This document shows, piece after piece, positions 6,037 through 30,889 of a stretch of 32,100 bases of DNA. The stretch is from an uncultured Dehalococcoidia bacterium. Lineage in GTDB: Bacteria; Chloroflexota; Dehalococcoidia; DSTF01; WHTK01. Numbering within the stretch: position 1 is the stretch's first letter; each line of letters begins with the position of its first letter. The notes below the pieces were generated by a model, which did not search any database, was not told the DNA's origin, and saw only the letters and a list, made by a program, of their open reading frames with translations. The translations under genes and the position numbers were made by a program. Location: assembly GCA_964572535.1 (NCBI GenBank), contig CAZNHI010000002.1, forward strand, positions 1 through 32,100, read 5' to 3'.

Positions 6037-6486
6037 CTAGTCCAGCAGGTCGCGCACGGCTGCCACCACCGCCTCCGGCGTTTCGCGAGGCAGGAAATGC
6101 CCCGCACGCGGCACGATGCGCCGTTCGTAGCGCCCCGTGAAGTGCCGAGCGTGGCGATCATTCGCATCCGGGGCGCCGAGACCGTCTGATTCACCTACCA
6201 GCGAAATCGTGGGCACCGTGATCTGCGGCTGAAGCGCCAATAGCGCCTCGATGGGCTCCAGCGCCGGGTCGCCGGGCGCGGCGCGATGCCGGTGACGGTA
6301 GGACTGGATGACGACGTCCACGAAGTCGGGGTTGTCGAAGCTCTGGGCCGTCTGCTCGAACGTCGCCTCATCGAAGTCGTAGTTGGGCGACCAGAGGCGC
6401 CAGAGCAGGCGGCAGACGTCGCGCCGGTCCTGCTCCAGGCCGTTGCGGCCCCGCTCAGTGTGGAAGTACCACTGGTACCAGAACCG
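6037..6486 (-). pseudogene. alpha/beta hydrolase (epoxide-hydrolase-like), C-terminal half only
   Basis: Hand translation: (stop at 6540-6538) QASTRDTSHASGSAGGN-RFWYQWYFHTERGRNGLEQDRRDVCRLLWRLWSPNYDFDEATFEQTAQSFDNPDFVDVVIQSYRH...AGHFLPRETPEAVVAAVRDLLD. It has the catalytic-His region but no HGxP or nucleophile elbow. It is in frame with track ORF 6037..6321. Confidence 0.8.
6478..6486. repeat. left copy of the 9-bp direct repeat CCAGAACCG (insertion junction)
   Basis: Identical 9-mer at 30446-30454. On the minus strand both copies encode R-F-W in the hydrolase frame. Confidence 0.85.
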
Positions 6487-6970
6487 GTTGCCTCCGGCAC
6501 TCCCGCTTGCGTGGGAGGTGTCTCGTGTCGAAGCTTGCTAGCGTTGTGGCTCTGGTGCTCTTGGCTGTCCTGTTCCGCCTCGGCCCGGTCCCGCACCAAG
6601 TCACTCCCGACCAGGGCAGCCAGCCGGGCCGCGTGGGACCGGGGCCGGCAACAGTTAACTCCTCGTTGGGGCGGTCTCGTATTGGCTCACCTGGCGCCAC
6701 CGCAGTATCTGCCTGCTCCGCGAGCGGGTGGAGCATGGCCAATCAAACTGCGATCTGAAGATGCCCGACGGCAGCTGTCGCTCCCATCGTTTGGGATCTT
6801 GGACAGCAGAGAGTCGGGAGAACGAGACCAACATGACCAGGGCTTTGTTCCGGCTTCAAAGAGCCGTCTTTCGGAGTTCGCCGCGAGTAACCTACACGTA
6901 AGGGGGCATCTCACGATGCCGTCATAGTGTCTCGGTCAGAGATTCTGTAATCTGTAAGTGGATGTGGCTT

Positions 6971-8077
6971 CTAGGGTTGTCCCATGATGACGGCCAGGTT
7001 GGCCGCACTCTCAAGAGGCAAAGGCGGCTGGCTGAAATCGACCTTGACCAGGGTTCGGGTCGCGGCGATGCGACGGTACGCGGCAACGTAGTCGTCCGTC
7101 ATGCGGCCGATGCTGAACCGCTCAACAACCTCCTGGCGGCAGGCCTGTGGACTGATCTGACCGATTCGTGCGACCGCGTCCACCATGCCTTCTACGTTAT
7201 CCACGATGAAGCCGGTCTCCCCGTGGCGGATCAATTCGGGGGCTGAGCCTTTGCGCATCGCGATCACTGGCGTGCCGCAAGCCAGTGCCTCCGCCATGAA
7301 GAGTCCAAAAGGCTCGTCCCAGGTCAGCGGCGCCAGCAGGCAGCTCGCGCTGGAGAACAGCCGGCGTTTGACCTCGTAGTCCGCCTCGCCCACGTATTGC
7401 ACGAGCCCGCCATCGATGGCCGGCTCGACCTGTGTCCTGAAGTAGGGTTCGTCCACTGCGTCGACGTTACCGGCGATGATCAGGGGGCGGCCCAGCCGCT
7501 TTGCCACTTCGATAGCGAGGTGAGGCCCCTTCTCCGCGCTGATCCGGCTGAGGAAGAGCAGCGAGCCGTCCCGTGCGCCTGGATTGAATGGGTAGCTCTC
7601 GTAATCGATACTGTTGTAGATCACGCCGGCAAAGTCGCCCTTATCCGGCAGAAGCGACTTGGCGGATTGGCTGATCGTGTTGTACCAGCCTTTGTAGCGC
7701 TCGAACAGCAGCAGCCAGTCTCCCTGCATACCGCCGTGGAGCGTGGTGAGCACAGGCGTGTCGACGAGCCCCGCCGTCGCCATGCCCTCGATGCCGGTGT
7801 GATTGTGGATCACGTCGAATTCGTCGGCTCGCTCCAGGCAGGAGACGACGTTGAGCATCGTAAAGATGCCTGCCTGGCGGCCGCTGCCGCGCAGGAAGTG
7901 CGGCGATCCTGGGACGAGGGTGGCGGTCGTCAGCGAGTCGCCGCTCGCGAAAAGCGTTACGTCATGGCCACGCCTGACCAACTCTTCGGTGAGCAGGCTC
8001 ACTACCAGTTCAGTGCCACCATACGCTGCGGGAGGTACACGAATCTCCAGGGGCGCGATCATTCCGATGCGCATCAT
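6971..8077 (-). CDS. glycosyltransferase family 4 (GT-B, GT1/GT4-like)
   Basis: N-terminal MRIGMIAP...PPAAYGGTELVV and C-terminal EPFGLFMAEALACGTPVIA (E-x7-E). The track start at 8083 is a GTG; the ATG at 8077 or 8074 is more likely. Confidence 0.85.
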   Translation of the reverse strand: MMRIGMIAPLEIRVPPAAYGGTELVVSLLTEELVRRGHDVTLFASGDSLTTATLVPGSPHFLRGSGRQAGIFTMLNVVSCLERADEFDVIHNHTGIEGMATAGLVDTPVLTTLHGGMQGDWLLLFERYKGWYNTISQSAKSLLPDKGDFAGVIYNSIDYESYPFNPGARDGSLLFLSRISAEKGPHLAIEVAKRLGRPLIIAGNVDAVDEPYFRTQVEPAIDGGLVQYVGEADYEVKRRLFSSASCLLAPLTWDEPFGLFMAEALACGTPVIAMRKGSAPELIRHGETGFIVDNVEGMVDAVARIGQISPQACRQEVVERFSIGRMTDDYVAAYRRIAATRTLVKVDFSQPPLPLESAANLAVIMGQP

Positions 8078-8125
8078 CCGCACCGGCGGAACAGGCTACG
8101 TCTCTTTGGGGTTAGCATTATTTGC

Positions 8126-8309
8126 CTATCCTTCATCATGGAGAAGTCGCCGAATCTCGGTCTCCGCCTCACCCGTCTTCGCCTTGCCGATTCCAACGAG
8201 GCGATCCAAGTTGCCTGCGACGCGTTCCAGGTCATCGTCAGTCAACGTCCCCCACATGCTTTTCAGGCGGCCTCCAAACTCCTACAGTTTGCCCTCGGTC
8301 TGCCTCCAT
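8126..8309 (-). pseudogene. CsbD-like small stress protein, apparently frameshifted
   Basis: Hand translation 8257->8126: MWGTLTDDDLERVAGNLDRLVGIGKAKTGEAETEIRRLLHDEG*, which is CsbD-like (WGxLTDDDL). The expected N-terminus MEADRGQTVG (ATG 8309) is in another frame, and an in-frame TAG lies 8 codons upstream of the MWG start. Too short for the ORF track. Confidence 0.4.
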
Positions 8310-8536
8310 GCCGAATTCCCCCCTCACCGGTGTATCTCTACCGGTTTACTCGCGTTCCAATGACCGTTTGGTGTGCCTTCGAGGCTGATACGAACAACCT
8401 ACGGAGGACGCAGGAAAGGCGGCATCAAGTCCTAGCCACTCGGCGTCAAAGAAGTATCAATTTGAAGCTTGCTGTTGTCCGTGGCAGCTGGCGGTCAGAC
8501 GCTCCGACTGTCAGGAGTGTCGACTCTGGTTGTGTG

Positions 8537-8944
8537 TTATGCGAGTAGTTGAGTAACGAGGTCGAGGAGTCGCTCGGGATCAAATGGCTTCTCTATCGCG
8601 GCCTCGGCACCGAACTCTCGCTGGGCGGCGCGGGCTCCGTAGGCCGAGGCAATCAAGACTGGCGTGTCCTGATCCCTTGAGCGCAGCTCTTTCAGGAAGG
8701 TGCGCCCGTCCATGCGGGGCATCCTAAGGTCCAGGATGATGATGTCCACCGCCTGACCGTCCAGCAGTTCCAGTGCAGCAAGACCATCGGTCGCGGTAAG
8801 GACGTTGAGCCCCGCAACAGCGAGAACCGCGGAGACCATCTTCGTGAGGTTTCGGTCGTCATCGACGATCAAGACGTTACGGGTGATTGTAAGTTGCGTC
8901 TCAGATTGCAAGGCTTCGCTGGTCGTTGGGCACATACAGGACAA
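8537..8944 (-). CDS. single-domain response regulator (receiver only)
   Basis: VLIVDDD...IILDLRMPRMDGRTF...KPFDPERLL. Paralogous to 16180..16578. The start codon is uncertain (TTG 8944 or ATG 8935; no clear SD). Confidence 0.85.
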   Translation of the reverse strand: MSCMCPTTSEALQSETQLTITRNVLIVDDDRNLTKMVSAVLAVAGLNVLTATDGLAALELLDGQAVDIIILDLRMPRMDGRTFLKELRSRDQDTPVLIASAYGARAAQREFGAEAAIEKPFDPERLLDLVTQLLA

Positions 8945-9116
8945 CCATTTTGTTTATTCTAAGGAGACTATCTTCATTTTCGTTCACTGCTTTTCATAAT
9001 AGAAGCGCAAATGGCAGTTATTGTGGCCTTCAAACCTCTTTGAAAGAACCCTGAAATAGCCGAAGCGACAAATTCGTGCCCAAGTCAAATGCGATAAAAA
9101 TGAAAGCCGACCCTGC

Positions 9117-10649
9117 TTGTTTCAGTCACTATCTTGGATAGCCTATCGAATGGAAATGCTAGAGCTTAGAGAGTCAGACGTGCCCAAGCCATGGCGACTT
9201 CGATCGCGCATCAGTCTGGCCCTGGTCGCCCTTTTCGTCGCGATCTTCGGGATGATAGTGACCCGGCTCGCAGCCGCTGCAGGGGCCATTGCGCGCGGCG
9301 AATCAACTCGTGATCTGCTTGGGACGCGGCATTCGGATGCGGAGATCGCGACGCTGGCGGCGACTATGGAGATGATGCAGCGGTCGATTCAGGTACGGGA
9401 AGAACAGCTGCGAGGTCAGAGCGCCGTTCTGGAATCAATCGAGCGCATGGGTGAGTCGCTGGCAAGCGAGTTAGACCTGGACAAGGTGGTCAGCGCCATA
9501 ACCAGGGCTGGCCTCGAACTGGCGGAAGCGGAGGCGGCAGTTTTCCTACTGCGACTGAACGTTGATGGCCAATTCGAGGTCATCGACTCTACCGGGCGGG
9601 AACAGTGCGTGATCCTGACATCGGATGATCCGCTGATGCAAGAGGTGCTTCATGGCCACAGAGTGCATATCTCCGACCTTACTGCTGTGTCGGGACGTCC
9701 GGCTGCTGCTAACAATGAGCGTGGCGCCAGGAGCGTGCTTGGCCTGCCGGTCATGTCGCGATCTGGTGAAATTGAGGGCGCGCTCGTTCTGTTCCACACC
9801 GGCGATGACGCGTTCAGCAGCCTCCATCAACGACTAGCTCTAGGCCTGGCTCGCTGGGCAGGTATCGTTGTCGAAAACGCCAAGCTCTACAAGCAGAGTC
9901 AGGAAGTCCTGGAATTGCTCCGTCACGCCAATGTTTCCAAGGACGAATTCCTGGCCATCGTCTCGCATGAGTTGCGAACTCCGATTACCACGATCTACGG
10001 TGGTTCTCGGCTTCTAAAGGTACGGCGCAAGGGCATGCCCGAAGAAGCTGTCGATGAGTTGGTCGAGTCGGTTTCCGAGGAGGCGGAGCGCTTGTACCTT
10101 CTTGTGGAGGACCTGCTCGCGATCGCCCGGACCGAGATGTCAGAGGAGGTCGAGCGGGAACCGGTCGCACTGGGCTTGATCGTTGAGCAAGCCGTCGCGC
10201 AGTTCTCACGAGCCCACGAACGGCAGGTCGAGGTCCAAATCGAGACTGACATGGCCCCTGCCCTTGGCGAGTCGACGTATGTGCAGCAGGTGGTAACTAA
10301 TCTGCTCTCGAACGCTCACAAGTACTCACCTTCTGAGCATCCCATCGAAGTCGAAGCGACTTGCGATGGAGAGGAGCTGACAGTCCGCGTAATGGACCGC
10401 GGCCCGGGCGTCCCCGAGGCTGAGCTCGAGCAGATCTTCGAGAGCTTCTACCGCTCTCCGGAGGCCGCGGAGCAGGCTACGGGCAAGGGACTGGGCCTTA
10501 CGGTATGCAAGAGGCTGATCGAAGCCCTTGGAGGACGCATCTGGGCGCAGAACCGGCTCGATTCGGGACTCGTCGTTGCATTCACACTCAAAGTTGCGCC
10601 AATGGAGGCCACGGAAGCGATAGACCTGCCTCTCTCGCCGGCCGGTTAA
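9117..10649 (+). CDS. membrane-anchored GAF-domain sensor histidine kinase
   Basis: One TM segment (LALVALFVAIFGMIV) and a GAF-like middle region. H-box SHELRTPITTI, N-box LLSNAHKYS, G-boxes DRGPGV and GKGLGL. The start may be TTG 9117 or ATG 9150. Confidence 0.85.
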   Translation: MFQSLSWIAYRMEMLELRESDVPKPWRLRSRISLALVALFVAIFGMIVTRLAAAAGAIARGESTRDLLGTRHSDAEIATLAATMEMMQRSIQVREEQLRGQSAVLESIERMGESLASELDLDKVVSAITRAGLELAEAEAAVFLLRLNVDGQFEVIDSTGREQCVILTSDDPLMQEVLHGHRVHISDLTAVSGRPAAANNERGARSVLGLPVMSRSGEIEGALVLFHTGDDAFSSLHQRLALGLARWAGIVVENAKLYKQSQEVLELLRHANVSKDEFLAIVSHELRTPITTIYGGSRLLKVRRKGMPEEAVDELVESVSEEAERLYLLVEDLLAIARTEMSEEVEREPVALGLIVEQAVAQFSRAHERQVEVQIETDMAPALGESTYVQQVVTNLLSNAHKYSPSEHPIEVEATCDGEELTVRVMDRGPGVPEAELEQIFESFYRSPEAAEQATGKGLGLTVCKRLIEALGGRIWAQNRLDSGLVVAFTLKVAPMEATEAIDLPLSPAG

Positions 10650-10667
10650 GAAAGGAAGGGACGTTCT

Positions 10668-10715
10668 TTGAAGAAAGAGCCTACTCCGACTTTGAAGAAA
10701 GAGCTTACTCCGACA
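10668..10715 (+). repeat. 24-bp tandem duplication spanning the start codon of the response regulator
   Basis: TTGAAGAAAGAGCCTACTCCGACT / TTGAAGAAAGAGCTTACTCCGACA, encoding (M/L)KKEPTPT-LKKELTPT. Confidence 0.9.
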
Positions 10716-11441
10716 ACGGTTCCACTCATTCTGGTGGTTGATGATGACGCTAACATCCTGCAATTCGTGAAGCTGGAGTTGACGAGCCAGGAGTTCCGCG
10801 TAGCGACCTCACAGGACGGCGCCGAGGCCCTTAAGATAGTCGAGGAGCAGCGGCCAGACCTCGTCATCCTGGACGTTGTGATGCCGAACATGAGCGGGCT
10901 AGAGGTAATGCGGCGCCTGAGAGAAACCAGCGGCGTGCCGATCATCCTGCTCACGGGCCGAAACCGCGACCAGGATAAGGTCCGCGGTCTAGATATGGGC
11001 GCGGATGACTACCTCGCTAAGCCATTCAACCCAGACGAGCTCAGCGCTCGAGTGCGCGCCATTCTCAGGCGTGGCCATGCGTTGGACGAGCGTCCCCACC
11101 CAATTGTAAGAAACGGGAACATTGAAATCGATCTGGTCAAGCGATTGGTTACGAAGGACGGCGAACTTGTCACTTTGACAAGAACCGAATGGCTGCTCCT
11201 CCAGTATCTGGCGACGAACGCCGGCCGCGTCATCGTCAACGCAGAGTTGTTGACCCGTGTCTGGGGCGTGGAATATTCCACCGACGTCCAGTACCTCCGC
11301 GTTTGGATCTCGCGGATCCGTCACAAGCTCGGGGAGGAGACTGCCAACCGCACGCTGATCAAGACCATGCCGGGTGTCGGCTATCTGCTTCAAGCCGATG
11401 AACCCGTGCCTGATGCAGGCGGCATGGTAGCAGCTGTATAA
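10668..11441 (+). CDS. OmpR/KdpE-like DNA-binding response regulator
   Basis: Receiver domain (LVVDDD...LDVVMPNMSG...KPF) plus a winged-helix output (LTRTEWLLLQYLATNAGRVI...YLRVWISRIRHKL...GVGYLL). Lies 18 nt after the kinase stop. Confidence 0.9.
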   Translation: MKKEPTPTLKKELTPTTVPLILVVDDDANILQFVKLELTSQEFRVATSQDGAEALKIVEEQRPDLVILDVVMPNMSGLEVMRRLRETSGVPIILLTGRNRDQDKVRGLDMGADDYLAKPFNPDELSARVRAILRRGHALDERPHPIVRNGNIEIDLVKRLVTKDGELVTLTRTEWLLLQYLATNAGRVIVNAELLTRVWGVEYSTDVQYLRVWISRIRHKLGEETANRTLIKTMPGVGYLLQADEPVPDAGGMVAAV

Positions 11442-11444
11442 GCC

Positions 11445-11981
11445 TCAAACCGGGTCGCGCTTTGGCTTTGTCTCTTCCGCTTCCTTTTCCAGCGATTCCA
11501 TATCGCTGGCCAACTTGCGGATTTCTGTTGGCTCCTGCATCTTGGCGATTTCGGCATCATCGCTTCCGGGCAGGGCCAGGTGATCGCGAATCTCAGTCAG
11601 CATGACTATTAGCTTGGTGACTTCACTTTCAGCGATGAGATTGACCTGCAGGTCGAGCTTTGCGCGCTTATCTGCAAGGCCGGCCTGGCGATTCTCACTG
11701 ATCAGCACGAAGGTCGCGAGAAAGATCGCCTCCAATGAGACGATCATCGTCAGAAAAGTGAACGGATACGGGTCGAATCCCCACACACCCGGAAGATTGA
11801 CAACGACCCACGCGGAGAACCACGCAACATGCAGCCAGACGTACAGCATGCTGCCGGCTGCACCGGTGATTGCCTTCGCCAAGTTGTCGCCGAGGGTCAT
11901 GCGGATATTGTCGCGTTGCTCCAAATCGACCATCTCTCGGACCGTCGAGTGTGCTCCTGTTTCCTGGTTTCCGTTGATCAC
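11445..11981 (-). CDS. DUF1003-family membrane protein
   Basis: FDPYPFTFLTMIVSLEAIFLATFVLISENRQ is the typical DUF1003 core. Two TM helices. GTG start with AGGTGA upstream. Confidence 0.7.
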   Translation of the reverse strand: MINGNQETGAHSTVREMVDLEQRDNIRMTLGDNLAKAITGAAGSMLYVWLHVAWFSAWVVVNLPGVWGFDPYPFTFLTMIVSLEAIFLATFVLISENRQAGLADKRAKLDLQVNLIAESEVTKLIVMLTEIRDHLALPGSDDAEIAKMQEPTEIRKLASDMESLEKEAEETKPKRDPV

Positions 11982-12016
11982 GTTGTCACCTGCGTCGGTT
12001 TGAGGCTACCTCGGCA

Positions 12017-12607
12017 CTAAAGAAGGTCTTTGCGAGCTTGCGCAGCCCTCGCGGCGCCAATCGCCGTCTTGACACTCTTTTCTTCCTCAGGTGGTGGAAG
12101 CACCGCAGGCATACCCAGGGAATCGATCCAGAGTTCTCTGGCCCAGCCCATGGTGTGGTAGAGGTGTTCGTCCTCCTCGTCCTCGACCTCTTCGACAGCT
12201 CGCTTTATCGCCGTTGCAGTTTTGCCTGAGGCGGCATTGGCCACTTGTTGCAGTAATGTCCAGTTCTGGTGGTCCTTGGTTTCCGCCAGCACCACGCACT
12301 CAGCAGCGAAGATTTCCGCGGCTCCGGCATTTGCGCTTCGCCCTATCGCCATGGCAGCGATCAGCGACTCTCCGATGTGGCGAACTATGCGACGGCCGGG
12401 AGTCTCGATAGACGCGTCAAGTGAAAGCTCGGCAAAGCAGTCTCGAAGAACCTGCTCGTGGTGTTCCGTTTGTTCGAGGTACTTTGTCCATTCCTCTTGC
12501 AAATTCGGATCCTGTGCGCATTTGATTGCGGCCTTGTAGATGTCTTGACCGCCGATTTCTGTCTCCAATGCTTGATACAACAGCTCGTTGACCTGCTTCG
12601 TGTTCAT
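12017..12607 (-). CDS. ferritin-like (four-helix-bundle) stress protein
   Basis: Start moved to ATG 12607 (MNTKQVNELLYQALETEIGG), preceded by AAGGAGA. Repeated E/H-rich helices (EQTEHHEQ, EDEEDEHLYH). Confidence 0.6.
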   Translation of the reverse strand: MNTKQVNELLYQALETEIGGQDIYKAAIKCAQDPNLQEEWTKYLEQTEHHEQVLRDCFAELSLDASIETPGRRIVRHIGESLIAAMAIGRSANAGAAEIFAAECVVLAETKDHQNWTLLQQVANAASGKTATAIKRAVEEVEDEEDEHLYHTMGWARELWIDSLGMPAVLPPPEEEKSVKTAIGAARAAQARKDLL

Positions 12608-12803
12608 TTGGATTCTCCTTGTTCTGACTAGTCTCCATCTCGGAATCTCAATATGACTTAGGGGCATAGCACGGAGAGCTAAGACACCCGTGAGCGATCT
12701 TGCAAAATGCGTCTACTTCTCTAGCTAGGAGATAGGAGCTCGGCTTGAAGGCTTGAGCTGCCAGCCGAGAGCGGTCAAAGGTTGAAGCAGCGCTATTTAC
12801 TAC

Positions 12804-12848
12804 TTTGTAATCGCGATCGCTGCCGCCACTCGCATGCCCTTTACTAGG
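12804..12848 (+). promoter_or_regulatory. bipartite motif TTTGTAAT-N27-CTTTACTAGG upstream of the DUF6458/GlsB/DUF1232 operon
   Basis: Same two boxes with the same 27-nt spacing as at 17859-17903. Ends 49 nt before ATG 12898. Confidence 0.4.
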
Positions 12849-12897
12849 GGCCGCCTACAGTTCGCATGTCGGTTAGTTCCCGACAAGGAGGACGAAG

Positions 12898-13113
12898 ATG
12901 GCTACAGGATTGAGTCTCTTATTGTTGGCAGCCGGCGCGGTCATCGCGTTTGGTGTGAACGCCCAGGTTTCAGGCATCGAAGTGCAGACAATCGGCATCA
13001 TCTTGTTTGTAGTGGGCATCGTAGGGCTGGCGTTCTCGATGTTGTTCCTGGCAAGCTTCGCGCCGTTTGCGACCCGCGAAACTCGCGAAATCAACACGCA
13101 CGATCACCTTTAA
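12898..13113 (+). CDS. small two-TM membrane protein (DUF6458-like)
   Basis: AAGGAGG 6 nt upstream. MATGLSLLLLAAGAVIAFGVNAQVSGIEVQTIGIILFVVGIVGLAFSMLF. Confidence 0.6.
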   Translation: MATGLSLLLLAAGAVIAFGVNAQVSGIEVQTIGIILFVVGIVGLAFSMLFLASFAPFATRETREINTHDHL

Positions 13114-13145
13114 CGACGGAGTGGCTGGCAAGGAGGAAACGTAAA

Positions 13146-13412
13146 ATGAGTATTCTGGCTTGGATTCTGGTCGGCCTCGTTGCCGGGGTGCTAGCAAAGT
13201 TCCTGTTGCCAGGGAGAGACCCAGGCGGCATCATCATTACCACTCTCTTGGGGATCGGTGGCGCCATCGTGGGAGGCTACTTGGCCGTCGCGTTGAACAT
13301 CAGCAACGGCGTGGACGACTTGGATGTCGGCACGATTGCGTTGGCCGTCGCTGGCGCAGTGCTGATCCTGTTCGTTTACCGGCTGGTGCTGGGCGATCGA
13401 GTCCGCGCCTAG
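13146..13412 (+). CDS. GlsB/YeaQ/YmgE-family stress-response membrane protein
   Basis: ATG 13146 after AAGGAGGAAA. MSILAWILVGLVAGVLAKFLLPGRDPGGIIITTLLGIGGAIVGG is typical of the family. Confidence 0.85.
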   Translation: MSILAWILVGLVAGVLAKFLLPGRDPGGIIITTLLGIGGAIVGGYLAVALNISNGVDDLDVGTIALAVAGAVLILFVYRLVLGDRVRA

Positions 13413-13421
13413 GAGACAACA

Positions 13422-13769
13422 GTGCCGTTACTGCTGCGATTCCTCGCCATCCCGGTCATCTGGATGATTGTGCGCCGTCAGCGTTCTTCGCGAGCGCCAG
13501 TGATCGACGAGATCGAGAAGTTGAACTTTAGCAGGCGCCTAAAGCTGACCTGGAGCCTGGCGAGGGACGAGAGGGTACCGATTTACGTGCGGCCCCTCTT
13601 GCTCCTACCCGCGCTCTACCTGGCATCACCGATCGATGTGATACCGGATTTCGTGCCGGTAGTGGGGAAGCTCGACGACGCGTTCGTGGCATCGACAGCC
13701 TATTCGTTGCTGGTGCGATTCGTGCCGCCTGCGGTCCTGAGAGAGCATGTGGACTTAGCCTCGGGCTAG
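13422..13769 (+). CDS. DUF1232 (YkvA-like) membrane protein
   Basis: ASPIDVIPDFVPVVGKLDDAFV core motif. GTG start 10 nt after the upstream stop. Confidence 0.75.
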   Translation: MPLLLRFLAIPVIWMIVRRQRSSRAPVIDEIEKLNFSRRLKLTWSLARDERVPIYVRPLLLLPALYLASPIDVIPDFVPVVGKLDDAFVASTAYSLLVRFVPPAVLREHVDLASG

Positions 13770-13937
13770 ATCGTCGCACTTGACGCTCTGTCGCGAATAT
13801 CTTGGCTGGCGTTGGTCAAGAGGTAAGTCTGAGGGCGCCCACCGTACCTCCCCAGGCGACCCTCAAAACGAGTCGCAAGCTTTTTGTAATCCCGCTGTCC
13901 TAGCGTTTCCACCTGTGGGTGCTAACTTGATAACGAC

Positions 13938-17780: not shown

Positions 17781-17858
17781 CGCGTAACGCCGAAGGTGAC
17801 GCAGCGCGGTTCAAGATGACTGCCGAAGTAGGTGATCTTAACCAGGACTCTTGAGTTC

Positions 17859-17903: not shown

Positions 17904-17935
17904 CAGTGATTACCGTGGTTGTAGGAGGTAGAGAA

Positions 17936-19021: not shown

Positions 19022-19077
19022 AGTGTCCGACGTGGAATCAGGCGCGCATCAGAGGCCTGTAACCACCGTTAACGGAT

Positions 19078-22856: not shown

Positions 22857-23058
22857 CTACGCCGTCGCCTCTCCTACTTTATCGGCAGCTTTTCATCTCG
22901 GGATCACGTCTGACGCTGGCGGCGCGGCGCTCGCCTCCCATGAACGTTATGTCCTCATAGTGCGTGCTGGTGATCAACAAGAGTTTTTCAGGTCGCAATC
23001 CACCGTCATAACGGTCTGGTAGTTCTGCCCTGTCGCCTTTGCCAGGATTGCCTCCTGA

Positions 23059-23646
23059 TTATCGAGAAATGTGATAGCCGATTGGCTTGAAGCTCCAGTT
23101 ATTGGATTGCTCGGCCGAGCAGGCTGTCACGCCGACGATGAGGTCCACCTCCGCGCGGAACTCGATGTAGTCGCCGGCCCGAGAGGTCGGAGGCAGAACC
23201 CTTGCCTTACCATCGGGTGCTAGCTCGACGTTCATAAAGGCGTTGAATGTAGTAGGAATGCGGTCCGGGCCAATTCCGAAGTCGGCGAGTGCTCGCGATA
23301 GGTTACCGAAGCAACTCGGATGCCTCTTATCAAAACCGTAGAGGCGCTCGAACATCTCCGGGCTGCAAGGTGCGAAGAGGAAATCATGCCGCGCCACAGT
23401 GTCAGCCACGATGGTGAGCATGGGATTGCTGCGATTGGAGTAAAGGACGTGGCCGGCCGTGAACGCCACTGTGCCGTTATAGTCGATAGACCGACCCGAG
23501 GAAAGCCACTCTTCGCCATCGAGCGTAAACGCGATCAGGTCGGATACTTGCTCACCCATCAGGTCAGTGAGCCGCAATGTGCAACCTGCCTCCAGACGAA
23601 ACGCACTGCCCGTCTGAGGTTCAATCCGGTTCTCGGTAACCAGCAT
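23059..23646 (-). CDS. DUF1989 (urea-carboxylase-associated) family protein
   Basis: ATG 23646 preceded by GAGGAGG, which overlaps the upstream TGA. MLVTENRIEPQTGSAFRLEAGCTLRLTDLMGEQVSDLIAF...FAPCS is typical of DUF1989. Confidence 0.8.
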   Translation of the reverse strand: MLVTENRIEPQTGSAFRLEAGCTLRLTDLMGEQVSDLIAFTLDGEEWLSSGRSIDYNGTVAFTAGHVLYSNRSNPMLTIVADTVARHDFLFAPCSPEMFERLYGFDKRHPSCFGNLSRALADFGIGPDRIPTTFNAFMNVELAPDGKARVLPPTSRAGDYIEFRAEVDLIVGVTACSAEQSNNWSFKPIGYHISR

Positions 23647-23657
23647 CCGCGGCCTCC

Positions 23658-24422
23658 TCAGTCGAAGTGGACAGGGCAACGCCAATCATCGCCCACGTTA
23701 CGGCCCGAGTATTGCCGCGCCTCACTATGGGCGCCGTAGTCGTCCAGCATGGGGCTGGCTGAGCCGTGGAGATGGCTATCCCGCTCGCGGATCGTGTCGC
23801 GGATGCCGTTGAACCGGTGCTCCTCGCGCAGGCGCTCGAATTGAAAGTGATCGTTGAAGACCAGGGTGGGCCATGCGAACCGCCGTGCCCAGCGACTGCT
23901 GGCGGGTGAGAGGCCCACGACGAAGTAGGCTCCACCGGCAAAGCTAAATGAGAAGCCCTCACTCTCGGGATCCGATGAGACCTGCGGGTTCCAGTCGAAG
24001 TGCCGGCGGTCTAGCTCGTGCAGGGCTTGCAACTGGCGCCAGAGCAGGGTTTCGAAGGTCTTCATCGATCTCACCTTCGGCCCCATGAAGCTGGCGATAA
24101 AGCTCGTGAAATCAGCCTCGATATGGGGCCGCTCCTCACCGAAATGATAGAGGTCGTATGCCAGCCCAGCCGTTGCACCCTCAGAGGCGATCTGGTCGTA
24201 GAGGCTAAAGCGGTAGCTAGACTGGTTGACCACGGACTTGGCGCCGACGCAGGGGAATTCGGGGTCGTGAAGCATGGCGCGCAGCGCGGAATGAACGTCC
24301 GCCGTCATCCTGTTATGCGCGCCGCTCGCCTCGATGATGAGCTGCTCCCCGTCCCAGCGTCCGTAGTTGCTCTGAGCACGCGCTTCGTCCGTAGCGAAGG
24401 GGTTCTTGACCTTGGCTCTCAT
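23658..24422 (-). CDS. YqcI/YcgG-family protein
   Basis: Internal ATG 24422 (MRAKVKNPF) forms an ATGA overlap with the GT2 stop. DPEFPCVGAKS and FSFSFAGGAYFVVGLSP are typical of the family. Confidence 0.8.
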   Translation of the reverse strand: MRAKVKNPFATDEARAQSNYGRWDGEQLIIEASGAHNRMTADVHSALRAMLHDPEFPCVGAKSVVNQSSYRFSLYDQIASEGATAGLAYDLYHFGEERPHIEADFTSFIASFMGPKVRSMKTFETLLWRQLQALHELDRRHFDWNPQVSSDPESEGFSFSFAGGAYFVVGLSPASSRWARRFAWPTLVFNDHFQFERLREEHRFNGIRDTIRERDSHLHGSASPMLDDYGAHSEARQYSGRNVGDDWRCPVHFD

Positions 24423-25384
24423 ACTGCTGCCCCCGACTGTCGGCGGAGTTCGGCTTCCGGCGTCGCCGCCCGTCGTAAGAGCTGGCCGCGATAGCGCACG
24501 CCACCTTGAACCAGGCGTGAGAACAGGGCGAGCCAGCTGCATACGGCGCGCTCGAGCAGCCAAACGGGCGCGAACAGCGAGGCCGAAAAAGGAAATACGC
24601 TCGTCGCTCCGTCCTTACGCCGGCCAGCCTCGGCCAACACGACGGCGCTCCCGGCCGCGATAAGCAACAGATGGGGTGACTTCTGGGCGATGAATACGGT
24701 TGATGGCAATAGCGCCAACTGCCAAACCAACCTCGCGGGTCGCGCAAACTCGTCATATGCCTGACGTATACGCTGAGAGAAGAACTGTGATTTGCTCGGC
24801 GGCAACCGCCGCACGAATATGCCCGAGGCCACGATTTCGCGGCCGCCGAGGGCAGAGACTGTGCGTACAAGCTCAAGGTTCTCAAATAGGCTATCGCCGT
24901 TATAGATGTGGGACGGTCCCAGTGCAGAACGGCGCACGGCCAGAGTGCCTGGCCAGTCGCCACCGCCGATCCGGTTAAGCAGGCTGCGGGCAGTGTCCCA
25001 GCGGGCGTGCCACGGTAACGGATCGAAGTAGTTCTGCGGCCTTACGATTTCGGCGTCATCCAGCAGCCCAACCACCTCGGCGAGCCCAGCGATGTTGTAA
25101 CGGACATCGTCGTCGGCGATGACAACACGGTCACGTGTCGCGAGGTCAAAGCCGGTTAATACACCGGCTACCTTACCGTTGGCGCAGCGATGTCTCTCGT
25201 CGGGTGCCACGTGATGTATGCCTGGCCAGGCAGACTCGTGATACGAAAAGACTGTCTCAGGAGACCCGTCCACAACGATCAATTCAACTTCGCCGTTCAG
25301 CCAGCGCAAATAGGCCGCCAGCTCCTCCACATCGCCGGTCCGGTTGCGTCGTATCGGCAGGATATACGAGCAGTCGAGCTTCAT
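24419..25384 (-). CDS. glycosyltransferase family 2 with a C-terminal membrane segment
   Basis: YILPIR...ELIVVDGSP...VVIADDDVRY (DxD). Hydrophobic C-terminal third. ATGA overlap with the upstream methyltransferase. Confidence 0.8.
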   Translation of the reverse strand: MKLDCSYILPIRRNRTGDVEELAAYLRWLNGEVELIVVDGSPETVFSYHESAWPGIHHVAPDERHRCANGKVAGVLTGFDLATRDRVVIADDDVRYNIAGLAEVVGLLDDAEIVRPQNYFDPLPWHARWDTARSLLNRIGGGDWPGTLAVRRSALGPSHIYNGDSLFENLELVRTVSALGGREIVASGIFVRRLPPSKSQFFSQRIRQAYDEFARPARLVWQLALLPSTVFIAQKSPHLLLIAAGSAVVLAEAGRRKDGATSVFPFSASLFAPVWLLERAVCSWLALFSRLVQGGVRYRGQLLRRAATPEAELRRQSGAAV

Positions 25385-26208
25385 GACGGAACCCTGCCCA
25401 CGGCGAGCACCTGCGCTTCACAGCCGTAGAAGTCGGGCCTGTTGACGAAGGGGCGGCCGCCGTCACGCGCTATCTGCTGCCATTCGAGTTGGTCCGCGAT
25501 AGGCAGGTCCAGGCCGGCCGCGAGACCTGCAAGGTAGGTGAGCCAGCCGGACCAGAGATCCGCTTCGGCCGGCGCTAGTGGCGCCCATCTCTCGATGAGG
25601 ACCGCCTGCTGGCGTACTTCCTGAAAGCCGGCTGCGAGCATGAGCAGTCTTAGTTCGCGCCCTCGGAGCGAGCCGCTGGACTCTGGTCGCGAGTCTGAAG
25701 CCAGAAGGCAGGCCTCCGCTAGATGCGACGCTAAGAAGGGACTCGCGGGCGCAACCTTGAAGGCGGTCATGTCCACATCCTTGACCGCGACAATCCCTCC
25801 CGGCCTAACAATGCGCCTCAGGTCGGCCAACGCCTCCAAGGCTTCCGTGTCGTCCAGGTACTGGAGCGTATTGGCGCACCAAGCGCCGTCGAAGGTCGCG
25901 GTGCTGAATGGAAGCGCTGTTAATCCAGCCTGCAGGGCAGCCCCGCCGCGGCTCGGCAAGCGCTGGAGCGAAAGCCTGCAATTCTCGACGGCAATGTCGA
26001 CGCAGACGATGCGCCCCGCGCCGATCGCTTCGAGCAGCCAGGGCTCGAAGCTCCCAGCGCCGCTGCCGAGGTCAACGATAAAGGAGCCAGGCTCGAAGTC
26101 GACCGCGCGGACGAAGGCCTCGTACTCGGGCGCACAGGCGGTAAAGTGCACGTCGAGCCAGCGCTCATCGCTCAATACGTGGCCGGCGGACGTGCGAAGT
26201 GTGGTCAA
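25381..26208 (-). CDS. class I SAM-dependent methyltransferase
   Basis: Motif I VDLGSGAGS and post-I IVCVDI. TTG start 12 nt after the catalase stop. Confidence 0.8.
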   Translation of the reverse strand: MTTLRTSAGHVLSDERWLDVHFTACAPEYEAFVRAVDFEPGSFIVDLGSGAGSFEPWLLEAIGAGRIVCVDIAVENCRLSLQRLPSRGGAALQAGLTALPFSTATFDGAWCANTLQYLDDTEALEALADLRRIVRPGGIVAVKDVDMTAFKVAPASPFLASHLAEACLLASDSRPESSGSLRGRELRLLMLAAGFQEVRQQAVLIERWAPLAPAEADLWSGWLTYLAGLAAGLDLPIADQLEWQQIARDGGRPFVNRPDFYGCEAQVLAVGRVPS

Positions 26209-26220: not shown

Positions 26221-28440
26221 CTATGCCGGGACCGCGTCCTTGAGGCGGCCCGCGACGAACCTGTGCGCCTTCATGGCTTCAATAAAGGCGTCGGCGAAGC
26301 CGCTGTTGCTTGTGCCCCGGCGCCCGCCGCTGGCAGGTCCCATCGATGTAACCACTCCCTGGTCACTGACCAACCCGCCGTCCGATAGCTGAATATTGGC
26401 CAGATCGGCCATGGCGAAAAGCTCGACTCCGTTGCCGGTGGCGCCGATGGGCTTGCAATGACGGAAGGCCTCATTGATGAAATGCAGAGCGTTGCCATGG
26501 GTCTTCAACGCTTCAATGTGGGAGCCGCCCGGCACGTACACGGCGTCGAACAGTACGCTCGCGCCGGTGCGGTAGCTCTTATCCGGCGTCACAGCTGTTC
26601 CGTCGGAGCCTTTTACCTGGTTCAGAGTCGGCGATACAACCTTGAGGAGCGCACCTTGGGCGGTCAGGCGAGCCTTGAGGGCATTGACCTGAGCCGCGTC
26701 GAACCCATCCGCCAAAACGGCGGCCACCTGACGCGTCTTGATCTGGTCGTGAGCGGTGCGCTCTACGCTAACCTCGGGTGCCTCATAGGCGGGCTCGACT
26801 GCCTTACCGGCTGGTGGCGGATCGACGCCGACGCCGGCAGCAATACGCGCTGCCAGGTCGTGGTCCACGCGGTTGAAGTTGGCTATGACGCGCTCACGCA
26901 CCGGCATGAACTGGCACATACCGAGTTCGAATTGGCCTGCTTCTACAATATGCTGCTTTTCCGCCTCCGTCTGGCCGCGCCAGAACATCGCCGCCTGGCT
27001 GAAGTGGTCGAGGAAGCTGGGGCTTCGCTCGCGCACCTTTGTACCCTCGATCGGCTCCTCGTAATGAACGTAGCCGCCCTCCTCAGCCGAGGCTGGCTTC
27101 GGGTTCCCCACTATCGAGTTGGGATAGCCCGGCTCCGGCAGCGGCGCCGGGCCGGCTGCTCCATTTGCGAATGAGTTCGGAGAGTAAGAAGCCGGACCGT
27201 CATGGATATACATCTGGTGGATGCCGTCCCGGTGGTTAGTCTTTGGCTGCGCCAGGGGAGAATTGATTGGAATATGGGTAAAGTTTGGTCCGCCCAACCG
27301 CGAGAGCTGCGTGTCCAGATAAGAGAACAGTCGCCCTTGTAGTAGCGGGTCGTTCGTGAAGTCGATGCCCGGGACAACGTTCGCGATGTGGAATGCGACC
27401 TGTTCAGTCTCGGCGAAGAAGTTATCCGGGTTGCGGTTGAGAACCATGCGGCCAACGCGCTGCAAAGGTACGAGCTCTTCCGGCACGATCTTTGTCGGGT
27501 CGAGCAGATCAAAGTCGTATTTGAACTCGTCTTCTTCGGGGATTAGCTGTACCGCGAACTCCCACTCAGGGAAGTTGCCGGCTTCGATGTTGTCGAAGAG
27601 GTCGCGACGGTGGAAGTCGGGGTCCTTACCGGAAATCTGCTGGCATTCCTCCCAAATGAGGGAGTGCGTGCCCAGAACGGGCCGCCAGTGGAATTTGACG
27701 AACGTGGACTTGCCTTCGGCGCTAATCAGCCGAAAGGTATGCACGCCGAAGCCGTCCATCATGCGGAAGCTTCGCGGTAAAGCGCGGTCGGAGAGTAACC
27801 AGAGCAACATGTGGGTCGACTCTGGGGTTAGAGAGGCAAAGTCCCAGAACGTGTCGTGCGCCGATGCAGCCTGGGGCATTTCGCTCTTGGGCTCCGGCTT
27901 TACGGCATGGATCAGGTCGGGAAACTTGATCGCGTCCTGAATGAAGAAAATCGGCATGTTATTGCCGACGAGGTCGAAGTTGCCCTCTTCGGTGTAAAAC
28001 TTGGTCGCGAACCCGCGCACATCCCTCGCTGTATCGGTCGAACCACGCGAGCCCGACACCGTCGAGAATCGTACAAAGACCGGCGTCCGCCGCGAAGGAT
28101 CAGTGAGGAAGCGGGCCTTCGTGTAGGGCGCCAGCGAGTCATCGTACGCCTGAAAGAAACCGTGGGCCCCGGAGCCACGAGCGTGGACGACGCGTTCCGG
28201 GATACGTTCGTGATCGAAGTGGGTGATCTTCTCACGCATGTGGAAGTCATCCAAGATCGTCGGTCCACGGATGCCGGCCCGGAGCGAGCTGTCTGTGTTA
28301 CTGATGCGAACGCCCTGGTCGCTCGTTAGGTAGTCGTCCGAATTTGCAGGGACGCGTGCCTTCGCTACCTCTGGAGGGACTCCGTTGGATTCGGGTGTTT
28401 TGTCGGCCCGGGACTTGCGCTTCTGGCGGTGGTCATTCAT
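26221..28440 (-). CDS. katE: large-subunit (HPII-type) monofunctional catalase
   Basis: FDHERIPERVVHARGSGAHGFF and RLFSYLDTQLSRLGGPNF, plus a C-terminal DJ-1/PfpI-like domain. The start is either ATG 28440 or TTG 28461. Confidence 0.9.
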   Translation of the reverse strand: MNDHRQKRKSRADKTPESNGVPPEVAKARVPANSDDYLTSDQGVRISNTDSSLRAGIRGPTILDDFHMREKITHFDHERIPERVVHARGSGAHGFFQAYDDSLAPYTKARFLTDPSRRTPVFVRFSTVSGSRGSTDTARDVRGFATKFYTEEGNFDLVGNNMPIFFIQDAIKFPDLIHAVKPEPKSEMPQAASAHDTFWDFASLTPESTHMLLWLLSDRALPRSFRMMDGFGVHTFRLISAEGKSTFVKFHWRPVLGTHSLIWEECQQISGKDPDFHRRDLFDNIEAGNFPEWEFAVQLIPEEDEFKYDFDLLDPTKIVPEELVPLQRVGRMVLNRNPDNFFAETEQVAFHIANVVPGIDFTNDPLLQGRLFSYLDTQLSRLGGPNFTHIPINSPLAQPKTNHRDGIHQMYIHDGPASYSPNSFANGAAGPAPLPEPGYPNSIVGNPKPASAEEGGYVHYEEPIEGTKVRERSPSFLDHFSQAAMFWRGQTEAEKQHIVEAGQFELGMCQFMPVRERVIANFNRVDHDLAARIAAGVGVDPPPAGKAVEPAYEAPEVSVERTAHDQIKTRQVAAVLADGFDAAQVNALKARLTAQGALLKVVSPTLNQVKGSDGTAVTPDKSYRTGASVLFDAVYVPGGSHIEALKTHGNALHFINEAFRHCKPIGATGNGVELFAMADLANIQLSDGGLVSDQGVVTSMGPASGGRRGTSNSGFADAFIEAMKAHRFVAGRLKDAVPA

Positions 28441-28545
28441 TAAGGATTTATCCTGTCTCAATCTCCATCTGTCTCAGGCAAGTACATTGCCTTTCAGCTG
28501 GGCCTTGTGAGGGGCTGGGAGAACACTGTCATCGGTTGATACCCT

Positions 28546-28908
28546 CTAGCCCGATCGAAGCATCCTTCTGAGAGCTAAACCGGCAAGGAGAGCGCACGCG
28601 ATCGCGGGTCCAGGGTGTTTTCGAGCAAAGTTCCTGACCTTTACCCAGAACCGAGATGCCGAGGGCCCCTCAAGATAGCCGGCCGTATCCTTGCCTGCCC
28701 TGCGCAGCACTTCCTGAGGTTCGGCCGCACGTTCCTTCACCGCATCGGCGACGTTCCGCATGCCGTTGGCCGCCTTCTCCTGCAAGACCTCGACCTTCTT
28801 TGGAGCACCCTCGGCGAGCTTCGACACCTTCTCTTCAACCTGAGTCATGGCCTTGTCGATCCTGTCGCTCGCTTCATCGAGACCTTGTTCTGTGTCCTTC
28901 TTAACCAC
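28546..28908 (-). CDS. DUF883/YqjD-ElaB-like tail-anchored stress protein
   Basis: GTG start after AGGGAGA. Charged helical body and a single C-terminal TM (HPGPAIACALLAGLALRRML). Confidence 0.5.
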   Translation of the reverse strand: MVKKDTEQGLDEASDRIDKAMTQVEEKVSKLAEGAPKKVEVLQEKAANGMRNVADAVKERAAEPQEVLRRAGKDTAGYLEGPSASRFWVKVRNFARKHPGPAIACALLAGLALRRMLRSG

Positions 28909-29044
28909 GATTCTCCCTTTCTATCTGTGTCACTTGGGATCTCAGACTCTGGGTCCTCCGAGGTCTTTCATGCTTTCCAGGGGGACGACCGTCTTCATTA
29001 GCACGCTGACACCGCCGCGCTCATGGGTTAGCGCCAAGGCTTAG

Positions 29045-29066
29045 AGGGGTCTAAGTGACCCCTTTT
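29045..29066. terminator. hairpin AGGGGTC-taagt-GACCCCT followed by TTTT on the plus strand
   Basis: Perfect 7-bp stem read from the sequence. It lies 36 nt downstream of the minus-strand SRPBCC stop, but the T-tract is on the plus strand, so its orientation and function are ambiguous. Confidence 0.35.
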
Positions 29067-29101
29067 CTACCCACCATGCCGGAACTGCCGTCACCGGGCC
29101 G

Positions 29102-29647
29102 TTACTGGTCGCGAAGGCGCTGCGGGAGATCGCCCGAACCGGGAGCGCTGTCGAGGCCCTTCCTATACAGCTGACTCGACTCACCCTCATCAGCACCGTG
29201 TTTGATCTCACCGCGCCAGGCACCCGTTTCCTGGCCGCGTCCTTCAATGAAGTCCTTGAAGCGGTGCAGGTCGCCCTCGACCCGTCGCGAAACAACGCCG
29301 AGCACGCTGCCGGCGCTTTCCTTCACGCCTTGCGGCTCATAGTTGATGTGCATCTCAATTTCGGTGTGCTCGCCGTCCAGAGGCTTGAAGGTGATCGTGC
29401 CGTCGTTCCGGGCGCCACCTTCACTCTCCCACGCCAGAACCTCATCCGGAACCTGGCGGGTGATCAGTGCGTACCACTCCTTCGTCTCTCCACCGATGTC
29501 TGCTGCCCAGAAGAGCCGTTGATCGTCGAGCTGCCTGACCTCCCGCACACCCTCCATGAATCGTGGAAAGTCCTCGAATTGCGTCCACTGGTTGTAAGCG
29601 GTCTGTACCGGAACGTCGACTTCGATGGTGCTGTCAATTGTCGCCAT
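29102..29647 (-). CDS. SRPBCC (cyclase/dehydrase-like) family protein
   Basis: Start moved to ATG 29647 (MATIDSTIEVDVPVQTAYNQWTQFEDFPRFMEGV), preceded by GAGAGGGGAAA. Confidence 0.8.
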   Translation of the reverse strand: MATIDSTIEVDVPVQTAYNQWTQFEDFPRFMEGVREVRQLDDQRLFWAADIGGETKEWYALITRQVPDEVLAWESEGGARNDGTITFKPLDGEHTEIEMHINYEPQGVKESAGSVLGVVSRRVEGDLHRFKDFIEGRGQETGAWRGEIKHGADEGESSQLYRKGLDSAPGSGDLPQRLRDQ

Positions 29648-29854
29648 TTGTTTCCCCTCTCTGATTGGTGTCTCCAACATGAGGGGTACCTAATCAAGCG
29701 CGCATCAAGCTCTGCGCTAATGCCTCAAGGATTCATCAACGATGGCTGGGGCGTCTCCACGATGGGCGCGCCGGTGAAGCACAACTTGACCTACGCCGTC
29801 CCAGGTGCTGCTGTAGACGACACTATCCCGTGATAGTGTCAGGTCCCTAGAGGC

Positions 29855-30226
29855 CTAGCTGAGAGGCCGAGGCGTCGATTGTCGCTGTTCGCGCAGCTCC
29901 TGGACCGCCGCGACGAAGCCCTCTCGGACGTGGCGACGAGTTGCCTTTGGGTCGCGCAGAAGGTCGGCCAGGCGCGTATGGAGCTCGTCGGTCAACGCAA
30001 TGCGCTCTCGGCCCAGCTCATTTTCCAGCCATCGGCTGGCACCGTCGTAGAAACTCATGTGAATGGCTGTCTTTAGACGGGAGCGTAGCTCGCAATAAGC
30101 GGCCCAGCGCTCCCGCTCCTCAGGTGCCTCGCCGTAGGCAGTTGCTTCCTGGAAGGGTATGAGAGCGTCGAGGGCCTCAATGAGCATGACGATTTCTGTC
30201 CCGGTCAGGGCTTCGTGTGTGGACAA
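29855..30226 (-). CDS. hypothetical protein
   Basis: 123-codon ORF. TTG start with AGGAG 10 nt upstream. No family recognised. Confidence 0.4.
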   Translation of the reverse strand: MSTHEALTGTEIVMLIEALDALIPFQEATAYGEAPEERERWAAYCELRSRLKTAIHMSFYDGASRWLENELGRERIALTDELHTRLADLLRDPKATRRHVREGFVAAVQELREQRQSTPRPLS

Positions 30227-30445
30227 CTCGGCTGAACTCCTGGGGCGGGCAGAAGCGGCGGGTTGAGGTCAGGGCGATTGTAGCGCGGTTCTTACACGTA
30301 TACCTGAACCGGCGTGTCACAACGACCTATACGCCGGCTCGCTGCTTCACCCACTCCCGCAGGTCTTCGAGTTCTTCTTCGAGCGGGTCGCGGAGCACGA
30401 CCTCCATCTTCAGCCAACGCAGATGCTCCTGGATGGTCAGCAGCT

Positions 30446-30454
30446 CCAGAACCG
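30446..30454. repeat. right copy of the 9-bp direct repeat CCAGAACCG (insertion junction)
   Basis: Identical to 6478-6486. Sequence outside the 9 bp does not match between the two sites. Confidence 0.85.
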
Positions 30455-30889
30455 CTGCTCAACCGCCGCGGGCGCCGGGTTAGCGGACGCCGCGACGTCC
30501 TGCAGGTTGTAACCGCCCACCGTGACCAGGCCCCGCAGTCGCTCCGGCCACAACGCCGAGACGATGCACGCCGCGCGCCCGCCCCAGTCGTAACCGCCGA
30601 CCACTGCCTGCTCGATGCCCAGGGCGTCCATGAAGTCGCGCAGATCAGCGCCCAGGGCTGCCTGCTGACCGGAGCGCGGCGTCTCAGCGCTGAGGAATCG
30701 GGTGGCGCCGTAGCCCCGCAGCCACGGCACGTAGACGCGGCAGCCCAGCTCGACGAGGCCGGCAAGACAGCCGTCGTAGGCGTGCGGGTCGTCCGGGAAG
30801 CCGTGCAGCAGGATCACCGGGGCGCCAGCTTGCGACCCGTGCGCCTCGTAGGCGATCTCGAGCGTCGGGGTGCGGACGGTTAGAGGCAT
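30446..30889 (-). pseudogene. alpha/beta hydrolase (epoxide-hydrolase-like), N-terminal half only
   Basis: MPLTVRTPTLEIAYEAHG...VILLHGFPDD (HGxP)...VVGGYDWGGRAA (Asp nucleophile elbow)...AAVEQRFW. After the repeat it runs into SC-stop at 30437. Confidence 0.8.

Follow-up and report, generated by a model that had tools for sequence, protein, structure and literature searches.

A 24-kb block of compositionally foreign DNA splits an alpha/beta-hydrolase gene of an uncultured Dehalococcoidia bacterium and is bordered by an exact 9-bp target duplication

Investigating a contig of 32,100 nucleotides from an uncultured Dehalococcoidia bacterium (CAZNHI010000002.1 of the NCBI assembly GCA_964572535.1), which was analysed over its entire length and is called the window here, we found a single alpha/beta-hydrolase gene on the minus strand, whose two halves lie almost 24 kb apart. 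Its N-terminal 148 codons occupy positions 30889-30446, contain the motifs HGFP and GYDWGG and end with EQRFW, after which the present sequence continues for only two codons, S-C, before a stop. The C-terminal part occupies positions 6486-6037, starts with RFWYQWYF and runs through AGHFLPRE to its own stop codon. Both halves share the same nine base pairs at the breakpoint: the plus-strand sequence CCAGAACCG is present at 6478-6486 and again at 30446-30454, with 23,959 bp between the copies, and reads on the minus strand as CGGTTCTGG, that is CGG TTC TGG, which codes for RFW and is codon-aligned in both halves. The bases directly outside the 9-mer differ between the two sites. The features on which the following argument rests are these:

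6478 to 6486: left copy of the 9-bp target-site duplication, CCAGAACCG
6487 to 30445: inserted DNA, 23,959 bp, with stress and signalling cargo
30327 to 30445, minus strand: 3' remnant (last 39 codons and stop codon) of a gene for 231-350 amino acids, cut exactly at the junction
30446 to 30454: right copy of the 9-bp target-site duplication, with donor-like sequence beginning directly after it

Deletion of positions 6487-30454 in silico yields an uninterrupted open reading frame (ORF) of 294 codons, and the directly joined halves, as they would stand in an empty site or after excision, would read ...GAGCAGCGGTTCTGGTACCAG... across the junction. The joined translation matches Pfam Abhydrolase_1 with its residues 24-277 (83.7 bits) and aligns in a single stretch to residues 14-300 of the putative epoxide hydrolase PDB 5bov_A (E 1.4e-74), free of gaps at EQRFWYQWYF; it contains the HGxP oxyanion motif, the nucleophile elbow with its Asp and the C-terminal catalytic His (as HGFP, GYDWGG and AGHFLP, respectively). 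Scanning species-representative genomes gave 80 loci encoding products of 59-71% identity that align with residues 1-293 or almost all of them, and among 5.8 billion protein clusters uninterrupted homologues, mostly of 289-300 residues, reach up to 88% identity at 98-100% coverage; no protein in this cluster collection is identical to the restored ORF at 90% or more. Of these relatives, 120 were aligned, covering 91-100% of the joined ORF, and all of them pass the junction without a gap, with exactly one R-x-W each at this place and with R146 and W148 invariant in 120/120. Judged by its sequence, the interrupted gene thus codes for a normal protein of the alpha/beta-hydrolase fold, near the epoxide-hydrolase-like group of 5bov. 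Neither half contains a frameshift or stop codon, and the ratio of non-synonymous to synonymous substitution rates (dN/dS) against an intact relative (contig L086) amounts to 0.137 in both, at a dS of 0.55. Since the halves are free of decay, the disruption must be recent relative to the divergence from relatives of 85% identity.

The empty site could be located in these relatives. Two close homologues, P0005 (83% identity; from an NCBI metagenome-assembled genome (MAG) named Dehalococcoidia bacterium and from two JGI contigs) and P0003 (87%; from ENA), are encoded on contigs with the same gene order as the flanks of the window: LarA, the intact hydrolase, a gene for 325 amino acids, NUDIX, metallo-beta-lactamase, class IV aminotransferase and bPH_5. 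Left and right of the insert, the backbone of the window shares 82-88% nucleotide identity with these contigs, and the alignment stops at window position 6480 and restarts at 30453. Compared with the intact genes on contigs L083 and L086, the N-terminal half of the hydrolase shows 85-87% nucleotide identity; at the site itself the relatives read GAGCATCGCCTTTGGTACCAG, with a single copy of the 9-mer, colinear with both halves of the window. The intact gene is therefore ancestral and the insertion in the window derived. An earlier, sequence-only reading of this DNA had proposed one hydrolase gene in two halves, separated by an insertion between exact 9-bp repeats with dissimilar surroundings, whose removal would restore 294 codons, and had suggested looking for colinear homologues and for an empty site; translation, the alignments across the RFW junction, the coordinates of the repeat and the uninterrupted gene in the LarA/NUDIX neighbourhood of syntenic Dehalococcoidia-type contigs all bear this out.

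It should be noted that the 9-mer is present four times in the window, against 0.31 copies expected. The additional copies are located at 3822 (minus strand) and at 28645 (plus strand), the latter also coding for RFW within a minus-strand gene, and the excess is probably an effect of codon usage. The statistical case therefore rests on the register of the two hydrolase halves and not on the number of 9-mers.

More informative is the DNA adjoining the right-hand copy. On the minus strand, a frame of 41 codons, VLELLTIQEHLRWLKMEVVLRDPLEEELEDLREWVKQRAGV followed by a stop, begins directly after the 9-mer. An exhaustive HMMER search with this frame returned 17 proteins, matched nearly always at their C-termini, and a follow-up search extended them to a family of 37 proteins, mostly of 345-361 and some of 213-231 amino acids, several of which come from Dehalococcoidia MAGs. 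Pfam, NCBIfam and PHROGs give this family neither an assignment nor a link to mobile elements. Its two closest members end with ...TKQELLTIQEHLSWLKMKVVLREPLEEELEDLREWVKQRVGV (90% identity over 39 residues) and ...TKRELLTIQEHLRWLQMEVVLRDPLEAELQEMRGWAKQRAGV. Where these proteins read TKQ or TKR before ELLTIQEHL, the window reads VL, so that the V-L encoded by the 9-mer replaces a native K-Q or K-R, and the similarity sets in only with the E whose codon includes the final base of the 9-mer; the 9-mer consequently is not donor sequence. The contig encoding the second of these proteins, L170, matches window positions 30202-30447 at 84% identity over 246 bp, a stretch spanning the 3' end of the truncated gene, a spacer and the start of a gene for 123 amino acids. 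In this donor-like contig, the latter gene and the spacer before it are what natively lies downstream of the truncated gene. The right inner end of the insert is accordingly the 3' remnant of a gene that is found intact in a donor-like contig, a relation that had not been noticed before.

In a three-way alignment the window tracks the hydrolase up to CGGTTCTGG and then L170 from (GG)AGCTGCTG... onwards; the donor-like sequences have AAGCGGG or AAGCAGG before AG, where the window has CGGTTCTGG before AG, and the overlap at this joint comprises at most 2 nt. By this comparison, the right-hand copy of the 9-mer is target-derived, and the same would hold for the left-hand copy. The sequence-only reading had left the choice between a target duplication and a crossover core; the alignment at the right junction speaks for a true target-site duplication, with a crossover core disfavoured and donor microhomology likewise, the left copy being included by analogy with the right one. 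As read from the same alignment, the right end of the insert is an arbitrary break some 190-310 codons into an ordinary gene, a position that argues against both a transposon end and an att site.

Aligned as inverted repeats, the inner ends agree in register at 5 of 30 bases, and 30 of 300 shuffles gave a local inverted match as good as their best one or better, in line with the earlier statement that they are not inverted repeats. Integration of a circle was considered and rejected: joined through one 9-mer, the inner ends give no continuous ORF, and the codon-phase pattern shifts at the junction. The missing 5' part of the truncated gene is found nowhere in the window, the left end included, and together with the lack of a continuous circular frame this excludes a circle whose crossover lay inside that gene. 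Nor is there a core common to an attP and an attB site, since the donor-like sequence differs at the 9-mer and the circular junction carries no continuous gene. At the left end, 484 bp without an assigned gene separate the junction from a glycosyltransferase gene. Here, positions 6507-6758 might contain a small inward-reading gene, 38 nt from the junction, with GGGAGG six nt before a GTG at 6525, then MSKLASVVALVLLAVLF..., and a coding-like codon phase over about 150 nt; it matched no family.

The insert is compositionally foreign and not yet ameliorated, as its GC content of 0.592 lies below the 0.66-0.70 of the flanks and its mean GC at third codon positions (GC3) of 0.70 below the 0.86 of the backbone. 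Its donor was probably a related organism of lower GC content. The nearest relatives of its most recognisable product, a large-subunit catalase of the HPII type, are found on JGI contigs (82, 81 and 78% identity) and in a Dehalococcoidia MAG (71%). From left to right, the insert contains:

6971-8083, minus strand: GT4 glycosyltransferase, the clear gene closest to the left junction
8537 to 16970: signalling and stress block, from the response regulator through the two receiver proteins, comprising the following nine lines
8537-8944, minus strand: receiver protein (response regulator)
9117-10649, plus strand: GAF histidine kinase
10668-11441, plus strand: OmpR-type regulator
11445-11981, minus strand: DUF1003 protein
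12017-12667, minus strand: ferritin-like protein
12834-13412, plus strand: Transgly_assoc protein
13422-13769, plus strand: DUF1232 protein
13938-16187, plus strand: histidine kinase with four PAS domains
16180-16970, plus strand: two receiver proteins
17906-18124, plus strand: CsbD
19169-19817, minus strand: dienelactone-hydrolase gene, frameshifted
20391-22856, minus strand: PAS-GGDEF-EAL protein
23059-23685, minus strand: DUF1989 protein
23658-24563, minus strand: YqcI/YcgG protein (GntA-like), above the NCBIfam GntA cutoff
24419-25384, minus strand: GT2-like protein
25381-26208, minus strand: methyltransferase
26221-28440, minus strand: HPII-type (large-subunit) catalase, the most recognisable cargo gene
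28546-28908, minus strand: protein of 120 amino acids, function unknown
29102-29680, minus strand: SRPBCC protein
29855-30226, minus strand: protein of 123 amino acids, function unknown

Within this cargo, the minus-strand cluster at 23059-26208 (DUF1989, YqcI/YcgG, GT2-like and S-adenosylmethionine (SAM) methyltransferase genes) may constitute a pathway of small-molecule modification; its YqcI/YcgG protein scores 267 bits on the NCBIfam model of the guanitoxin N-hydroxylase GntA, whose cutoff is 145. Signs of decay are present as well: the gene at 19169-19817, resembling dienelactone hydrolases and S9 peptidases, lies in two overlapping frames and is a frameshifted pseudogene, followed by about 600 bp without a plausible gene. 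An 18-nt near-palindrome, CACGATGCCGTCATAGTG, was further observed in two exact copies and one copy with three mismatches (CACTATCCCGTGATAGTG), at 6912-6929, 20245-20262 and 29821-29838, all on the plus strand and inside the insert, 17-129 nt downstream of the stops of minus-strand genes and with dissimilar flanks; 0.01 such occurrences would be expected by chance, and none of the other 165 loci contains the motif. It might act as an operator or as a small terminator; a role as a recombination site was considered as well and rejected, as the copies have no flanking similarity and the motif is present in no other locus.

Domain scans with Pfam, NCBIfam and PHROGs covered the genes judged plausible and, at 16970-20400 and 6487-6970, the longer ORFs without an assignment. 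None of the ORFs scanned matched a transposase, integrase, relaxase or phage family, and neither a tyrosine or serine recombinase gene nor a recombinase remnant was found among those of the insert, which agrees with the earlier statement that no recombinase is encoded. The window contains no recognisable tRNA or tmRNA gene and no Rfam match, so that RNA genes are rejected as targets or ends.

The backbone around the insert differs from the relatives in other places, too. At 5917-6033, the window has 117 unrelated bp, containing a tandem GGTTGAACAACAG in two copies and a hairpin CTGAGGGTTGAAACCCTCAG, where the relatives have the gene for 325 amino acids (1,164 bp) between NUDIX and hydrolase; at 819-1103, it has the C-terminal part of a DUF433 protein, corresponding to two GerE-domain genes in the relative (L083, 15701-17883). 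Between the aminotransferase and metallo-beta-lactamase genes, which are adjacent in 3/3 relatives, a cassette of 1.2 kb and lower GC content (3115-4331, GC 0.60) consists of nothing but a Fic-domain gene (3128-4234, minus strand) and the spacer upstream of it. Taken together, these differences characterise a highly variable neighbourhood. The Fic cassette is flanked by AGGACTGCG (3115-3123) and AGGTCTGCG (approximately 4333-4341), which match in 8 of 9 positions. As a second target duplication this pair was rejected, lying 3-4 nt off the alignment breakpoints at a chance expectation of about 5% once the latitude in placing it is allowed for, and it was kept only as a lead.

Other copies of the island were sought in a collection of 15 billion proteins, in which 17 island proteins are present by exact sequence. 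At 90% clustering, all 17 are either singletons or cluster only with variants from Logan assemblies or with one fragment of 60 amino acids, and exact look-ups of window proteins lead only to the window's own contig and to Logan assemblies of SRR6868922. The fragment is encoded on an ENA contig of 293 kb (L167), which shares with the window merely a 370-bp patch at 29979-30345 (89% identity) in unrelated context. When metagenomes were scanned with the catalase, identity reached no more than 58% among the matches listed, and these showed no synteny. The collections searched thus yielded neither a further copy of the island nor one of its termini, and with no relatives at 90% identity or above beyond its own contig and the Logan assemblies, nothing suggests an element that moves repeatedly. 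The start of the 123-amino-acid gene and its upstream spacer (window 29979-30447) recur at 84-89% identity on L167 (9778-10140) and L170 (2144-2385), each time with different flanks and with one of the two genes truncated; this region looks like a rearrangement-prone spot in the donor lineage.

With a probability of roughly one half, we consider that the island arose by a single illegitimate capture of the end-joining type, in which a linear foreign fragment was taken up at a break with 9-nt staggered ends. About 24 kb of linear DNA from a Dehalococcoidia-like member of the same class, with lower GC content, would have been joined once into the chromosome: the hydrolase gene would have been broken by cuts 9 nt apart on the two strands, fill-in of the overhangs would have left CGGTTCTGG on both sides, and the foreign fragment would have been ligated in between with hardly any homology, if any. 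The staggered break, the enzymes (e.g. end joining of the Ku/LigD type, or annealing at gaps) and the route by which the DNA entered are what we infer from this arrangement, and the insert may have survived because the catalase and stress cargo was useful and the hydrolase dispensable. This explanation is favoured because it makes the fewest assumptions, since a transposase or an integrase depends on specific ends or on a shared core, neither of which is present at the right end.

Illegitimate integration is known in bacteria as homology-facilitated or double illegitimate recombination in natural transformation and as end-joining capture at double-strand breaks. What the island has in common with such events is the arbitrary donor breakpoint inside a gene, observed at the right end together with no more than 2 nt of overlap (microhomology of 0-2 nt), the lack of mobility genes, its uniqueness and a cargo of ordinary chromosomal genes from a related organism. 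It differs from them in that 24 kb is very long, that the target kept all its bases and gained a clean 9-bp duplication, and that no homologous anchor segment is visible on either side; a literature search on microhomology-mediated insertion of islands gave nothing specific.

Several points weigh against an end-joining capture. It is DDE transposition (IS4/Tn5/Tn10, IS1) that is characteristically marked by such a clean duplication of 9 bp of target, and bacterial illegitimate recombination normally leaves deletions or microhomology of a few bases. How a break with a 9-nt stagger could arise spontaneously is not obvious. The arbitrariness of the breakpoint is seen at the right end only, no donor proxy having been found for the left one, and L170 as donor proxy is only 84% identical, which makes the overlap of 0-2 nt approximate. 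Finally, the host genome, and with it any end-joining genes, is seen here through one 32.1-kb contig.

The main rival, a non-autonomous mobile element whose recombinase acted in trans or has since been lost, is possible but rather doubtful. The enzyme could have been a DDE transposase cutting at 9 bp, or a serine or tyrosine integrase with the 9-mer as its core, and much about the target side is as such an enzyme would leave it: the direct repeat is exact and codon-precise, no target bases are lost, nine bp is the duplication length of the IS4/Tn5/Tn10 and IS1 types, and the left end stands without a donor comparison next to a duplication that is very transposase-like. The frameshift at 19169-19817 and the following 600 bp or so of non-coding DNA make the internal loss of a gene conceivable, and the Fic cassette with its matching 9-mers in 8 of 9 positions is close by. 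The ends, however, have no inverted repeats, the right terminus lies in the middle of a gene, which is found intact with its downstream spacer in another genome, and the right-hand 9-mer is derived from the target and not common to the donor, so that it does not qualify as an att core. No recombinase domain was recognised in the ORFs scanned, the longer unassigned ones included, no second copy was found in the collections searched, and the repeat of the Fic cassette is offset from its breakpoints at a chance expectation near 5%.

Among known systems, the island most resembles illegitimate integration, and it is no member of the classes compared below. DDE transposons that duplicate 9 bp (the IS4 family including Tn5 and Tn10, as well as IS1) share the exact target duplication with the island, but not its lack of terminal inverted repeats, of a transposase, of insertion sequence copies at the ends and of other copies found, nor a terminus inside an unrelated gene. 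Skin in sigK and SPbeta in spsM of Bacillus, as well as the nifD, fdxN and hupL elements of Anabaena, likewise are large, lie in a coding gene between short direct repeats and would restore its reading frame upon clean removal; these elements, however, encode a site-specific recombinase and their repeat is the crossover core, whereas no such gene was found here and the repeat is not donor sequence. Integrase-borne islands, integrative and conjugative elements (ICEs) and integrative and mobilisable elements (IMEs) resemble the insert as compositionally distinct sets of accessory adaptive genes bounded by direct repeats, and differ from it in that here no integrase, relaxase or tRNA target was found and the ends are not element-specific.

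It seems improbable that these bacteria possess an integrating enzyme, for instance a domesticated transposase or an integrase of the casposase type working in trans, which cuts its target with a 9-bp stagger and is indifferent to the ends of the incoming DNA. It would insert ordinary chromosomal fragments, from single genes to blocks of 24 kb, without element termini, and the Fic cassette with its 8/9 matching 9-mer flanks would then be a second product of it. Further insertions with 9-bp duplications and arbitrary ends in this lineage, if found, would point to an undescribed route of integration; a single case is best read as a repair accident.

Very improbable is a conservative relocation of native DNA within the same genome. 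It could be argued that L170 and the backbone relative L086 derive from one ENA sample, that the divergence of L170 from the window (84% identity) is about that of the backbone (85%), and that the nearest catalases are from Dehalococcoidia. Against this, the GC3 of 0.70 departs from the 0.86 of the backbone, the closest relative of the catalase (82%) is less similar than that of the hydrolase (88%), and the Logan graph does not branch at the left junction, which means that the sample contains no second copy with other flanks.

As for the contig itself, an independent Logan assembly of SRR6868922 contains three contigs, with inferred spans of 2923-17969, 18699-24318 and 27919-30369, which are 100% identical to the window over the stretches retrieved. 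The retrieved part of the first (2923-14234, 11.3 kb) crosses the left junction; the third ends at 30369, 77 nt before the right junction, which is backed by one assembly. That an unrelated 24-kb fragment was stitched into the hydrolase locus by metagenome mis-assembly is hardly credible, for although the window is a whole MAG contig and the Logan assembly is too fragmented to give the right junction a second witness, the left junction is crossed identically, the two junctions coincide at a single codon of one gene, correctly oriented and with a 9-bp overlap, which two independent chimeric joins would not produce, and nine bp is far below the k-mer length of any assembler and too short to mislead it into a false join.

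In kind, this is a real but ordinary case of a genomic island that lacks mobility genes and was gained by horizontal transfer. The combination of an empty site, a target duplication and a donor-like contig with the cut gene intact is rare for horizontal transfer known from metagenomes only. The locus thereby provides a clean case, resolved to the base pair, of a large block of adaptive genes, here for a catalase, proteins of general stress, two-component systems and c-di-GMP signalling, entering the genome of a poorly known and uncultivated lineage without the machinery of a mobile element.

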